Numbered from the stretch's first letter, positions 565-9,947 are shown. The stretch: 9,947 nucleotides of DNA from a virus (IMGVR_UViG_2579779116_000007:1-9947), one strand, 5' to 3'. Numbers and translations are program-made. Notes: generated by a model not told the origin, from the sequence alone.

Positions 565-1662
565 ATGACAATTTCATATATTCCTATTCTGAAAGCGAAA
601 CGTTCTGAGTTATCAGCTTTATCGCAGCTATCCATTGAAAAGAAATCAAAAATTTTGCCATTACTCGAAATTGAACCAGTGCCAATTGACCCTGATTCAG
701 GTATTGCCTTAAAGAGTTATAACGAGACTCTTATAGAGTTCGGAAAGAAAGTCTCAAAATCTTGCTCAGATATGCAAGGTGTTTATATTGATGGATTATT
801 AATTGAAGAGCATTTTATTTCTCCTGAAGATCATTACCCTATAATAAATGCGGTTAATCAAGTTAGAGATATGGGGATAAGAGTTATTCCTGTCAGTTCA
901 CCAACTCGCCCATCTAACTATAAAAGAGCGATTGATGAATTAATGCAGAATGAAATATGCTTGAGATTAACCACGTTAGATCTGGTTAACCCACAATTAA
1001 TAACGCATTACATTAATCATCTGGGAATTCCTTTATCAAATATTGATATAATTATTGACTTAAGAGATGAGTTAACCGAGGATAAACTTAATTCCGGCGA
1101 ACTATATACTTTGGCAATGGGATTGATAAACAATCTGGCGCACCTCAATGAATACAGAAAAGTGATTCTTTCTGGGGGTTCATTTCCTACAGATCTCAGT
1201 GATATTTCTGTTGGTCTATATTCTCAACCTCGAATCGAGTGGATTTTATGGCAGAGTTTAATGAATAGAAAAGAACTTGCCAGAAATGTGATTTATAGTG
1301 ATTATGGAGTACAGCACCCCGACTTTAATAGGCTTTCGACGCGATTCCCTAACGTATCTGCCAGCGTCAGATACTCTGGAGATAATGACTTTTGGGTATT
1401 TCGAGGAAGAGTAGCTAATCGCTTTGGTTATGAACAATATGGTAAACATAGTGAGGATATTCTTGCTCATCGAGAATATTCAGGGCCTACATTCTGTGCG
1501 GGAGATAGAGACATAGAATATTATGCAAACGAGTATCAAGCCTACAAAGCCAATCCCTCTGGTAACTATAAATTTGGTAGCCCAGAGGTATGGCGTAGGA
1601 TTGGGCAAAACCATCACATAACTAAGGTTGTTGAGCAACTCGCCACTCTTTACGGGCTTTAA
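565..1662 (+). CDS. Hypothetical protein, 365 aa, AT-rich cargo gene; possible partner of the adjacent nuclease-like protein (from memory it resembles the uncharacterised sce7725-type partner family, unverified)
   Basis: ATG at 565 preceded by AAGGT (554-558) with a 6-nt spacer; uninterrupted 366-codon frame; codon usage rich in ATA/AGA/TTA, unlike the flanking prophage genes; no P-loop or methyltransferase motif recognised. Confidence 0.75.
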   Translation: MTISYIPILKAKRSELSALSQLSIEKKSKILPLLEIEPVPIDPDSGIALKSYNETLIEFGKKVSKSCSDMQGVYIDGLLIEEHFISPEDHYPIINAVNQVRDMGIRVIPVSSPTRPSNYKRAIDELMQNEICLRLTTLDLVNPQLITHYINHLGIPLSNIDIIIDLRDELTEDKLNSGELYTLAMGLINNLAHLNEYRKVILSGGSFPTDLSDISVGLYSQPRIEWILWQSLMNRKELARNVIYSDYGVQHPDFNRLSTRFPNVSASVRYSGDNDFWVFRGRVANRFGYEQYGKHSEDILAHREYSGPTFCAGDRDIEYYANEYQAYKANPSGNYKFGSPEVWRRIGQNHHITKVVEQLATLYGL

Positions 1663-2200
1663 GTTTAACTCGAACAGCTTCACGAAGCTCGCCAACATCC
1701 ATACTATTGGCGAGTTTTGACCATAAGACGCGTTTAGGTTTATTTTTCAAATTCTGTAGCTCCCCTACATCACTTAATAGGGAAAGCAATTCATCTTTCC
1801 AAAGAAGCATTGTTAAGGAAAGTTTGTCCACTTGTGGATTCAACTTGCTAGTTCGAATTGTTTTTAAATGGATACCTTGCCGTGCACCTTGCGTAACTTG
1901 CTTTATCCCCCACCATGATGGAACTATGCTTAAAGCATCATAAAGATGGCAATCAGAGACAACCAACGTTACTTTATCCATCACTGATGAGTAATGTTGC
2001 ACCTGCGCTGGTAATCTGAGCAAGTTATCACTTTTGCTCTTCAACTCATAACCATGTATAAGCCCATTGATCACTGCTATATCAGCTCTGCTAGCCCCCA
2101 GATTCATCGTAAACTCATCAATGATTAGGGTGTCAGGATCTTTATGATGATCTCTCAAAATCTTGGCATGCACAGCCTTTCTTACATCAATGTCTCTCAT
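1622..2200 (-). CDS. Hypothetical protein, 192 aa, with a putative PD-(D/E)xK nuclease-like core (E...D-x11-E-x-K); possibly sce7726-like (from memory, unverified)
   Basis: ATG at 2200 (weak SD); 193-codon frame; the segment IIDEF...SRADIAVINGLIHGYELKSKSD places acidic residues and a lysine in the spacing typical of restriction-endonuclease-fold active sites; 3' end overlaps the convergent 365-aa gene by 41 bp. Confidence 0.7.
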   Translation of the reverse strand: MRDIDVRKAVHAKILRDHHKDPDTLIIDEFTMNLGASRADIAVINGLIHGYELKSKSDNLLRLPAQVQHYSSVMDKVTLVVSDCHLYDALSIVPSWWGIKQVTQGARQGIHLKTIRTSKLNPQVDKLSLTMLLWKDELLSLLSDVGELQNLKNKPKRVLWSKLANSMDVGELREAVRVKLKARKEWRVAQQP

Positions 2201-7228: not shown

Positions 7229-7316
7229 GGTTTAGTGTTTTTTTGCGAGTTTAGTGTTTAATAAACCATTAAGTCAAGTATTTGCTTGTTTAGTGATTAC
7301 TAAAGATAATTACCAC
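7229..7316. promoter_or_regulatory. Divergent immunity promoter/operator region: three direct GTTTAGTG(T/A)T repeats and two face-to-face sigma70-like promoters
   Basis: Repeats start at 7230, 7249 and 7288 (19 and 39 bp apart). Plus strand: TTGCTT (7282-7287), 17 bp, GATAAT (7305-7310), then 6 nt to the ATG at 7317, implying a leaderless repressor mRNA. Minus strand: TTGACT (reverse complement of 7272-7277), 18 bp, TAAACT. Confidence 0.55.
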
Positions 7317-7688
7317 ATGCAAAAAAAAGAAATTCGCCGTTTACGTCTCAAGGAGTGGTTTAAAGATAAAACTCTGCCACCCAAAGAGAAGAGCTACCTA
7401 TCTCAACTAATGAGTGGGAGAGCATCGTTTGGAGAAAAGGCTGCCAGAAGAATAGAGCAAACATACGGGATGCCGGAAGGGTATCTGGATGCGGAATACG
7501 CAGAACAACCGGAGGTTTCTCCACCACATGCAGGGTTAACGCCTAATCAACTGGAATTATTGCAGATTTTTTCAGCCTTCCCTGAGGATGAGCAACGCCA
7601 GATAATCAGCGAGTTAAAGCAGAAAAAAGAATCAATGGAAGATCTCATAGCGAGATGGATTGCGGCGCAAAAATGCCGCCGCGCCTGA
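7317..7688 (+). CDS. Prophage repressor / TA-associated regulator (CI/DicA-like, PaaR-like), 123 aa
   Basis: HTH-like segment KSYLSQLMSGRASFGEKAARRIEQTYG; no SD, but the promoter geometry predicts a leaderless start at this ATG; occupies the cI/dicA position; no S24 peptidase domain. Confidence 0.7.
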   Translation: MQKKEIRRLRLKEWFKDKTLPPKEKSYLSQLMSGRASFGEKAARRIEQTYGMPEGYLDAEYAEQPEVSPPHAGLTPNQLELLQIFSAFPEDEQRQIISELKQKKESMEDLIARWIAAQKCRRA

Positions 7689-7708
7689 GTTATAAAACCG
7701 GAGGAAAC

Positions 7709-7900
7709 ATGAATAGAGCCCTTTCACCAATGGTTTCTGAATTTGAAACCATTGAACAAGAAAACAGTTACAACGAATGGCTGCGTGCGAAAGTAGCAAC
7801 GAGCCTTGCAGATCCGCGCCCAGCAATTCCCCATGACGAAGTTGAGCGCAGAATGGCAGAACGCTTTGCTAAAATGCGCAAGGAACGGAGCAAGCAGTAA
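7709..7900 (+). CDS. Antitoxin of the ParE-family toxin (PaaA-like), 63 aa
   Basis: GGAGG SD (7700-7704) with a 4-nt spacer; the stop is 1 nt before the toxin ATG; the size matches the 63-aa PaaA2 antitoxin as I recall it. Confidence 0.75.
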   Translation: MNRALSPMVSEFETIEQENSYNEWLRAKVATSLADPRPAIPHDEVERRMAERFAKMRKERSKQ

Positions 7901-7901
7901 A

Positions 7902-8180
7902 ATGTTACCCGTGTTATGGCTTGAAAGCGCAGATACCGACCTAGATGATATAACTAGTTATATTGCTCGTTTCGACATAGATGCGGCTGAACGCTTATGG
8001 CAGCGATTAAGGGGTTGTGTGCTGCCGTTATCCGAACATCCGTATTTATACCCACCAAGCGACAGAGTACCTGGCTTGCGTGAGATTGTAGCCCACCCTA
8101 ACTATATAATTCTATACCGCGTAACAACATCAAGCGTTGAAGTAGTAAACGTGATCCACGCAAGACGCCAGTTTCCCTAA
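7902..8180 (+). CDS. parE: ParE/RelE-superfamily toxin, 92 aa
   Basis: Typical ParE features: N-terminal W...A..DL..I..YIA and C-terminal YRV...VEVVNVIHARR; tightly coupled to the upstream antitoxin. Confidence 0.8.
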   Translation: MLPVLWLESADTDLDDITSYIARFDIDAAERLWQRLRGCVLPLSEHPYLYPPSDRVPGLREIVAHPNYIILYRVTTSSVEVVNVIHARRQFP

Positions 8181-8786: not shown

Positions 8787-9005
8787 ATGCAGAAACGAGA
8801 ACCCGTCATCATCGCGCCAGACTATACCGATGATGAGCTTTATGAGTGGATGCGCCAGAAAATTAATGCAGCGCAGGATCTGAAATGGGCCAATGAAGCC
8901 AGGGCTAAGCAGGCTGAAAATCTGTCCGCTCTGGAGCAGGATATCACCAGGCTGGAAAAAGCAGCGGCATTAAGCATTGCCAGAATGATTACATACCCGC
9001 GTTAA
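8787..9005 (+). CDS. ydfC: YdfC-like small protein, 72 aa
   Basis: ATG at 8787 with GAGGA SD and a 6-nt spacer; size and order match ydfC as I recall it. Confidence 0.65.
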   Translation: MQKREPVIIAPDYTDDELYEWMRQKINAAQDLKWANEARAKQAENLSALEQDITRLEKAAALSIARMITYPR

Positions 9006-9027
9006 TAGCTAACCAACGAGGCTAATA

Positions 9028-9348
9028 ATGGAATTTAAAGATTTACCAATGCAATTCCAGGAAATGGCAGCGAATATAGTTCGTTCCCAACTGGCGACTC
9101 TTGACCTGAGTACCGTAGAAAAAGAAACCATCGATACTATATCCGGTAACGTGCGTCGTGCCTTTATCGGTCTGTACGAAGAGAAGCAGCTCTCTGATAA
9201 CCAGGATTTACATGAAAAATACTTCCTGGAACTAATGGACATCATTGATAAGGGGTTTGGCTTGTTAATGAAAAAGAAAGGGATTCGAATAGAACCCCTT
9301 GAAAATTACTTTGCAACAAAAAGCATTAATTCTTTTGATTCAAAATAA
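9028..9348 (+). CDS. Hypothetical protein, 106 aa, AT-rich, acidic and helical in character
   Basis: ATG at 9028 with GAGG SD; clean frame; 3' end overlaps the convergent 91-aa ORF by 23 bp. Confidence 0.55.
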   Translation: MEFKDLPMQFQEMAANIVRSQLATLDLSTVEKETIDTISGNVRRAFIGLYEEKQLSDNQDLHEKYFLELMDIIDKGFGLLMKKKGIRIEPLENYFATKSINSFDSK

Positions 9349-9601
9349 GAGAATTAATTACAGACTTAACATGCTCTTTCTCATGATTGAAGCTCTCATG
9401 ATTGAAAGTGCCGGGTTGAAGCGAGTCGATATAATCAACAAGACTCTGTCGTACGACTTCATTTTTATCCATAACAGATGCAAGAAATGAAATTGCTAAA
9501 AGAGTTATATCACTACGCGCCGCAGCATGCTGCAATGCTTTATCAAAATTATTAATCTGGCGTATCAGGGAGTTAATGATTTCATCATTTTCAGTCGACA
9601 T
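9326..9601 (-). CDS. Hypothetical protein, 91 aa
   Basis: ATG at 9601 preceded by AGGAGGG SD; the ORF-track frame extends 111 codons further upstream into GC-rich DNA with no start signal, so I truncated it. Confidence 0.55.
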   Translation of the reverse strand: MSTENDEIINSLIRQINNFDKALQHAAARSDITLLAISFLASVMDKNEVVRQSLVDYIDSLQPGTFNHESFNHEKEHVKSVINSLILNQKN

Positions 9602-9935
9602 TTCACCCTCCTGAGGGTTGGTGATTAAGGAGTTCTCCACGGGTGAGGTGGAGTGCGTGCGCCGGACACGGGTGAGCATCCGGCACTGACAGTTTACTGA
9701 AAGGATATTTCCCTGAAAAATCAGACCATAACGCGAAAGCGCACGGCGAGGTAGCTGGTTCATAGATAGCCTGTCGTTAAATTTTCGTCGACCGTGCGCT
9801 TCCGGTTGTGGCACTCCGCGAAATGGCGCGGCGGTAAGTATGGCGGGGTTATTCCTTCCCCGTTGAGGACACCGGGTTGTCAGGTTGACCATACGCTTAA
9901 GTGACAACCCCGCTGCAACGCCCTCTGTTATCAAT

Positions 9936-9947
9936 TTTCTGGTGACG
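9936..9947 (+). ncRNA. dicF: Probable 5' end of the DicF sRNA, truncated by the window edge
   Basis: The terminal TTTCTGGTGACG matches the start of DicF as I recall it (TTTCTGGTGACGTTTGGCGG...) and lies where expected downstream of ydfC; only 12 nt are visible. Confidence 0.4.

Follow-up and report, generated by a model that had tools for sequence, protein, structure and literature searches.

What are two small convergent ORFs doing between ydfC and dicF, and how did this arrangement arise? The locus lies at the 3′ end of the window (the whole 9,947-nt stretch of viral DNA that was analysed), and this end is a Qin-like dicBF region. The original prediction described two unknown, AT-rich ORFs, one on each strand, inserted as a pair into the ydfC–dicF spacer, with the minus-strand gene antisense to the dicF precursor transcript. 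Its description of the ORFs themselves was accurate in coordinates, lengths (106 and 91 aa), strands, strong Shine–Dalgarno (SD) sequences, AT-richness (32–41% GC over the ORF pair vs 48–53% in the flanks) and the 23-bp overlap of the 3′ ends (9326–9348). The features of the region, with positions in the window, are as follows:

From 8472, plus strand: ydfA
From 8629, plus strand: ydfB
8787–9005: ydfC
9010–9017: left copy of the inverted repeat ACCAAC/GTTGGT
9017–9030, plus strand: SD (GAGG, 7 nt from the start codon) and ATG of the plus ORF
9026–9615: segment of 590 bp absent from the Qin prophage of K-12 MG1655 (one clean gap in a pairwise alignment)
9028–9348, plus strand: plus ORF, 106 aa, ATG start
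9326–9601, minus strand: minus ORF, 91 aa, beginning MSTEND, ATG start, with AGGAGG 5 nt upstream (9599–9612)
9616–9947, plus strand: region upstream of dicF common to K-12, including the DicF precursor
9617–9624: right copy of the inverted repeat
From 9936, plus strand: dicF (Rfam DicF, 73 bits, in the near-identical locus L001)

The statement that K-12 has no annotated protein genes in this spacer was correct. The MG1655 annotation has no gene between ydfC and dicF, and the case that the ORFs are annotated, conserved core genes of K-12 Qin was looked at and found not to hold, both being absent from that strain. The K-12 dicBF operon (ydfABC-dicF-dicB-ydfD) has ydfA, ydfB, ydfC, about 320 nt upstream of dicF and dicF itself in common with the window, but it lacks both ORFs, and of the minus gene only a stump of the leader remains. 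The left third of the common region at 9616–9947 doubles as the minus-strand leader and candidate promoter. The cassette is flanked by the inverted repeat TAACCAAC ... GTTGGTGA, the copies of which are only 9 nt apart in cassette-less prophages (L105, L109 and others), where they could form a hairpin just after ydfC; the repeat may mark a recombination site or a structure in the plus-strand RNA. The two prophages also differ at the repressor position, where K-12 Qin has dicA and the window has a module resembling paaR2-paaA2-parE2 of O157:H7 prophages. This three-gene module (7254–8180, plus strand), directly upstream of ydfA, encodes a 144-aa ORF with no Pfam match, a PaaA2 antitoxin (PF21217, E 1.7e-19) and a ParE toxin (PF05016, E 4.8e-16).

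The plus ORF is listed in RefSeq as a 'hypothetical protein' (WP_000394534.1-like). It is a full-length member of phrog_6937, a family with no described function: the match spans residues 1–106 of the ORF and positions 1–106 of the 124 in the profile (E 2.2e-69). Since phrog_1363, phrog_2151 and phrog_9419 also match the first 55–70 residues, the N-terminal domain appears to be shared more widely. A search of a large protein collection gave 235 relatives, in Escherichia and Salmonella, none with a protein name. Residues 1 to ~91 form a conserved core. Beyond 'GIRIEPL' comes a tail whose coding sequence lies across from the 3′ end of the minus cassette; this tail differs from one cassette to another, the change being confined to the last 5–35 residues. 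The AF2 model is a helical bundle (pLDDT 68; helices 8–22, 32–53 and 59–84) in which residues 94–106 have pLDDT below 50, and this tail is predicted to be disordered. The plus ORF sits within the DicA-repressed ydfABC-dicF-dicB early operon and, judging by its position, would be read from the repressor-controlled promoter together with ydfA-ydfB-ydfC-dicF-dicB.

The minus ORF is also a RefSeq 'hypothetical protein' (WP_000102678.1-like). A first search returned close relatives only, the most divergent being a variant with 79% amino-acid identity. Relative to this variant there are 42 substitutions over 276 nt and no indels; dN/dS is 0.30, the lowest among the six frames, and synonymous changes are in excess (binomial p 0.001). 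This substitution pattern shows purifying selection on the minus ORF. At the same position in other prophages is a 92-aa minus-strand ORF with 28% identity over 86 aa (BLASTP, E 9e-6), and the 91-aa and 92-aa ORFs start at equal distance from the same ribosome-binding site. A joint 91/92 profile found only 18 relatives among 1.84 billion representative proteins, four of them more distant and 90–93 aa long. The typical member of phrog_18692, again a family without described function, is the 92-aa ORF; the HMM of this family matches the minus ORF weakly (E 0.022), and the 91-aa and 92-aa types join in one profile family. By these comparisons the minus ORF stands outside phrog_18692, to which it is distantly related. 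Because of the family match of the plus ORF, the selection on the minus ORF, its same-position homologue and its distant relatives, we regard both ORFs as real coding genes, the minus gene belonging to a very small family. The word 'unknown' in the original prediction is apt in that both proteins are uncharacterised, but both are already listed in RefSeq and lie in or near PHROG families.

Which start codon the minus gene uses has been annotated in several ways. The minus-strand frame is open over 202 codons, from 9326 to 9934, and so extends across the conserved DNA that precedes dicF; public annotations consequently carry N-terminal extensions, giving proteins of 145, 127 and 117 aa (P0002, P0004 and P0008). 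The conserved SD and the start of the homologues point to the 91-aa form. This protein is hydrophilic; it has three amphipathic helices and lacks a transmembrane stretch, and the AF2 model (pLDDT 66) predicts a small, all-helical protein of three helices. Among the distant relatives with readable surroundings, three (L011, L145 and L146) are convergent with an adjacent gene, which is a cI-type repressor gene in two lambda-like contigs and, in a P2-like element, a 214-aa helix-turn-helix gene downstream of a Cox-like gene. Going by known phage gene order, these neighbours would mark the direction of the early operon. A fourth relative adjoins an integrase. A protein-profile scan of GTDB genomes for further relatives gave none that was confirmed, and a 5′-UTR/SD pattern scan of viral contigs returned one true locus and two chance matches.

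Might the minus ORF nevertheless be a chance open frame in AT-rich DNA, over-annotated? It matches no Pfam, NCBIfam or PADLOC family, its own family is tiny (the 18 representatives above), and the frame runs on far upstream of the start, on which annotators differ. Against this stand the low dN/dS and the substitutions without a single indel, the distant homologues of equal length in several phage types, and the strong SD at a fixed distance from the start with a terminator after the gene. The chance-frame reading is largely refuted by these observations, and we consider it very improbable.

The DNA around the minus gene carries candidate elements of a separate transcription unit. These are, all on the minus strand:

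9691–9719: candidate sigma-70 promoter, TTTTCA, 17 nt, TAAACT (8/12 consensus matches, weak)
9661–9684: hairpin 1, GCCGGAUG...CGUGUCCGGC, where the minus mRNA is predicted to begin, or directly beside that point
9635–9653: hairpin 2, CUCCAC paired with GUGGAG, with compensatory changes in L011, L098 and L137
9608–9632 (9599–9632 with SD and start codon): hairpin 3, in which an anti-SD, CUCCU, pairs with AGGAG of the SD
9268–9300: terminator-like hairpin and T-run, inside the plus ORF coding sequence and at the left boundary of the variable cassette

The leader is about 85 nt long and its three predicted hairpins give an MFE of −38.7 kcal/mol (z −2.9). Covariation was tested on 13 diverse sequences with the three-hairpin structure. 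Standard pairs were formed by 92.7% of cells, compared with 33–52% when the partners were slid, and nine cells change on both sides, a number reached by 1/500 shuffles. Most hairpin pairs are invariant and the sequences are related to one another, so this support for the structure is modest. The anti-SD/SD helix of hairpin 3 contains one of the varying pairs (57-77), which is UA in seven sequences and AU in six, and hairpin 1 of L145 is a compensated variant, GCCGGG/CCCGGC. Hairpin 1 includes U.G and G.U pairs that are possible solely in RNA of the minus strand, and among the leader pairs G.U outnumbers A.C by 24 to 6, an excess which fits an RNA read from the minus strand. Conservation of the leader may partly serve the plus strand, since the region also lies within the plus-strand dicBF transcript. 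In silico, hairpin 3 occludes the SD partially (probability of being unpaired ~0.37). We also considered an RNA thermometer, which was rejected as the SD did not open on warming in silico (0.37 at 25 °C vs 0.35 at 42 °C). An Rfam scan of the near-identical locus L001 (E up to 1) had no match in the leader and returned DicF and a sub-threshold STnc100. The latter lies between dicF and dicB, beyond the end of the window (L001 10221–10361; 38.8 bits vs a gathering score of 47).

The candidate promoter was not among the results of a consensus promoter scan. A −10-like hexamer (TAAACT, TATTAT, TATGGT, TAGTAT or TAACAT, some with an extended −10 TG) nevertheless precedes hairpin 1 by 4–9 nt in each of seven independent upstream contexts, and this recurrence suggests that transcription starts at the hairpin. 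At the other end, terminator-like hairpins are also predicted 3′ of the family genes in L011, L015, L145 and L146. In L009 and L074 a strong 12-bp hairpin (CCAAAUGCGGGCC...GCCUGCAUUUGG) lies downstream of the 92-aa and 74-aa minus ORFs; it falls within the coding sequence of a 133-aa plus variant, accompanies two cargo types and has no clear T-run.

How widespread the segment is was determined in 5426 complete E. coli genomes. Part or all of the ydfC-to-dicF query was matched in 4339 of these, at least part of the plus ORF in 1358 (about a quarter), and the full two-gene segment in 198 (~4%). NCTC86 is an example of a strain with the cassette. Viral contigs were scanned with the first hairpin of the minus leader, which gave 120 loci. 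No ORF follows the leader in 79 of them, as in K-12; elsewhere the following ORFs, here called cargo, were found behind it:

91-aa type, and 92-aa type (phrog_18692)
73/74-aa type (phrog_7249)
77-aa type (phrog_10348)
69-aa type (phrog_2605)

Apart from the 91/92 relationship these types are mutually unrelated, and the PHROGs have no known function. The plus-ORF core was seen in three settings: next to the 91-aa ORF, next to the 73-aa ORF, and by itself. When these three arrangements are aligned, the variable block extends from just past the hairpin at 9278–9300 to the ribosome-binding site of the minus gene, and the form with the plus ORF only is a deletion derivative of the plus/73-aa form. 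With conserved leader and terminator flanks around differing cargo, exchange has probably occurred by recombination in the flanks, together with frequent deletion, as in K-12.

The leader, or at least its first hairpin, also precedes other cargo in unrelated elements from Edwardsiella, Pluralibacter and others, in which no dicF motif was found within 450 nt upstream of it. There is a 104-aa ORF behind the leader in Pluralibacter, an 86-aa ORF in another viral contig, and a 30-aa proline-rich peptide in an integrase/ParB-like island present in L098 and in Edwardsiella. A conserved 30–32-aa proline-rich peptide of this kind (MRINQFGGTERPRPDGQVPYRPTPAPKPKK) follows the leader in L098, L137, L144 (Edwardsiella) and L138; being conserved between diverged contexts, it may be a micro-protein or a regulatory leader peptide. 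In L098 the leader is at ~3500 of the oriented stretch and the genes downstream are a 156-aa ORF and then a 325-aa ORF that may be AbiH-like at its N-terminus. Two contigs titled as belonging to unrelated phyla, L138 (Chryseobacterium sp.) and L143 (Collinsella MAG), contain enterobacterial dicF-region or leader sequence, probably through contamination or mis-binning.

These comparisons bear on which way the event went. In K-12 and other empty prophages, hairpins 1 and 2 are still present together with the anti-SD, but the ribosome-binding site and the ORF have been lost; K-12 retains the minus leader up to the loop of the last hairpin. Since the leader of the minus gene is still there, K-12 looks like a deletion derivative, and since unrelated elements also have cargo behind this leader, loss is the best reading of the empty state. 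The ORFs had been described as inserted between ydfC and dicF; relative to K-12, loss in that strain, leaving a leader stump, is more likely.

The census also separates the two genes. If they formed a cognate two-protein system, either toxin and antidote or an exclusion factor with a self-immunity protein like SieB/Esc, the early plus protein would neutralise a minus protein expressed in the lysogen. The tight convergent packing would suit such a system, as would the recurrence of this layout with three plus C-termini (106/91, 133/92 and 135/77 aa), the long C-terminal regions of the 133- and 135-aa plus variants varying with the type of minus ORF, and the 91-aa ORF was always accompanied by the plus ORF (10/10 viral loci). 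Against such a system, the plus core has the 91-aa ORF as neighbour in some loci, an unrelated 73-aa ORF in others, and no partner in ~1000 genomes, the 69- and 74-aa cargo ORFs are found without any plus ORF, and the distant relatives of the minus ORF adjoin unrelated genes. The obligate co-occurrence of type II toxin-antitoxin or toxin-immunity genes is thus missing. Moreover, the change linked to the cassette is limited to the tail of predicted disorder, co-variation would be expected anyway from recombination in shared flanks, and neither protein matches a toxin, antitoxin or defence family. Since the plus core occurs in three arrangements and only the low-pLDDT tail of the plus protein changes with the cargo, the ORFs are probably not an obligate pair. 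The viral-locus census weakens the cognate model, which we now think improbable, and the 'pair' of the original prediction is better read as two independent genes.

We then asked what the minus transcript could do to the operon that it faces. The predicted transcript runs from ~9684 to ~9268 (~420 nt), and by its layout the minus gene is antisense to polycistronic dicBF RNA ahead of dicF. The 5′ end of a 190-nt DicF species, produced by RNase III, lies ~137 nt upstream of mature DicF (PMC10448788). By our own arithmetic from this end, the 190-nt precursor occupies ~9800–9990 in the window, and with its 5′ end near 9800 it lies outside the predicted antisense overlap. The claim that the minus gene is antisense to the dicF precursor transcript therefore stands for the polycistronic RNA upstream and fails for dicF and its 190-nt precursor, which the predicted transcript does not reach. 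The same study found no internal plus-strand promoter, the minus strand being outside its scope (PMC10448788). Pairing of DicF itself with the minus leader was tried and rejected, the duplex energy being no better than chance (417/500 shuffles were at least as good).

An antisense RNA could still be the functional product, controlling dicBF through transcriptional interference or RNase III cleavage of the duplex, with the ORFs secondary or incidental. The leader and promoter region is kept in the 79/120 loci without an ORF, K-12-like ones included, from which the transcript would run antisense into ydfC. There are also phage precedents, as lambda oop RNA and P22 sar RNA are cis-antisense regulators of phage early operons and are likewise short convergent transcripts complementary to an early polycistronic mRNA. 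The predicted minus transcript differs from oop and sar in having a conserved protein ORF and a ribosome-binding site. DicF and DicB, the products of the dicBF operon, are toxic on overexpression (PMC5069750, PMC10448788). What makes this reading quite unlikely is the purifying selection on the minus ORF, together with a 28%-identical protein of the same length and with the same start relative to the SD. A ribosome-binding site with a covarying anti-SD is sensible only for a translated mRNA, and the leader precedes cargo where there is no nearby dicF motif. Antisense RNA and protein roles are mutually compatible.

What the proteins do was sought by several routes. No significant match was found for either protein or family profile in Pfam, NCBIfam, PADLOC or PDB-sequence searches. 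Foldseek searches of the PDB with the AF2 models, which are of moderate confidence, returned generic helical bundles only (E >0.1), in agreement with the original statement that neither protein has an assignable motif. No paper mentioning the RefSeq or PHROG identifiers of these proteins was found in the literature. Two identities were considered and dropped. The IraP anti-adaptor (PF10796) appeared in two relatives (E 0.012 and 0.039), below the Pfam cut-off, with an hhalign probability of 1% and no BLASTP match. A type I toxin-antitoxin system like hok/sok would have a leader that sequesters the ribosome-binding site, as found here in the covarying hairpin 3 with its partial in silico occlusion, but it would encode a hydrophobic membrane toxin, and the 91-aa sequence is hydrophilic.

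The locus is probably best explained as two independent accessory genes of a Qin-like lambdoid prophage, arranged tail to tail, with the minus gene as a 'moron' in a swappable slot. Morons, as described by Hendrix and Juhala, are extra genes with their own promoter and terminator that are patchily present among related phages and are expressed from the repressed prophage. Presence of the minus gene is patchy with sharp boundaries (the 590-bp indel, 198/5426 E. coli genomes, 79/120 viral loci empty), a terminator of its own is predicted in silico (9300–9268, minus strand), and base composition deviates from that of the flanks (32–41% vs 48–53% GC). It thus resembles prophage morons in patchiness, composition, predicted terminator and orientation against the lytic operon, and the weak candidate promoter would be a further likeness. 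Unlike them, it has conserved flanks between which at least five unrelated cargo ORFs alternate, and its leader is also found in unrelated mobile elements. Expression in the lysogen, part of the moron concept, is here inferred.

The proposed mechanism is as follows. The minus unit would consist, in order, of a weak promoter of its own, the ~85-nt leader, the last hairpin of which would pair with the ribosome-binding site, the 91-aa helical protein and a terminator inside the plus ORF. The slot between conserved leader and terminator would either be empty or hold one of five or more small ORFs that are unrelated to one another. While the early operon is repressed, the minus gene would be made in the lysogen from its own promoter; once the early operon fires, head-on transcription would shut it off. 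The ~420-nt minus RNA would be complementary to the dicBF pre-mRNA in the stretch from ydfC to the DicF precursor, and it may reduce leaky production of DicF and DicB, which are toxic. The minus protein would most likely act in phage–host or phage–phage conflict, a role that is a guess from context, as neither protein gives a hint of function.

A possible parallel for such a role is given by the exclusion genes of related phages. In Rac, sieB is oriented against the early-left genes. Like sieB of Rac and SieB/Esc of P22 and lambda, which are exclusion genes in the early-left operon, the minus gene is a small gene near the immunity region, and it too has a cell-division inhibitor as neighbour (kilR beside sieB in Rac, dicB/dicF here). 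SieB resides in the membrane; the 91-aa protein lacks any membrane segment and shows no sequence or fold similarity to SieB.

A wider and rather doubtful reading starts from the leader instead of the gene. The leader would be a portable expression module for many unrelated cargo genes of Enterobacterales, in Qin-like, lambda-like and P2-like phages and in integrase islands of Edwardsiella and Pluralibacter, and its anti-SD hairpin would gate translation in response to a trans-acting signal. If this were true, the convergent transcript in Qin-like prophages would in addition keep the toxic dicF-dicB genes under a safety lock, and the small proteins behind the leader would be a hidden pool of conflict factors expressed by lysogens.

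Under the preferred reading of two accessory genes with the minus gene in an exchangeable slot, the locus matters because dicBF is a well-studied model of toxic cryptic-prophage genes, and it has been studied in K-12, without this segment. At the slot, an extra early-operon gene is present in about a quarter of complete E. coli genomes; ~4% have the 91-aa backward-facing gene and other strains a different one. As the minus transcript is predicted to be antisense to the dicBF pre-mRNA, regulation of DicF and DicB may differ between strains. The immediate value is descriptive, given that no function can be assigned to either protein. The slot with interchangeable cargo between leader and terminator is a handy place to seek new small prophage proteins, and the leader is a defined RNA element for studying translation control; we regard the combination of a conserved leader with interchangeable cargo as the most interesting aspect of the locus.

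A second convergent arrangement lies at the other end of the window, where a Beta_protein family gene (565–1662, plus strand; PF14350, E 2e-52) is overlapped by a 192-aa ORF with no Pfam match (1622–2200, minus strand); RefSeq matches over 565–2200 list a 'beta family protein' and an 'sce7726 family protein'. The best complete E. coli genomes cover 60–64% of the 9.9-kb window, in several pieces, and none reaches 80%, so the prophage is a mosaic of modules seen separately elsewhere.
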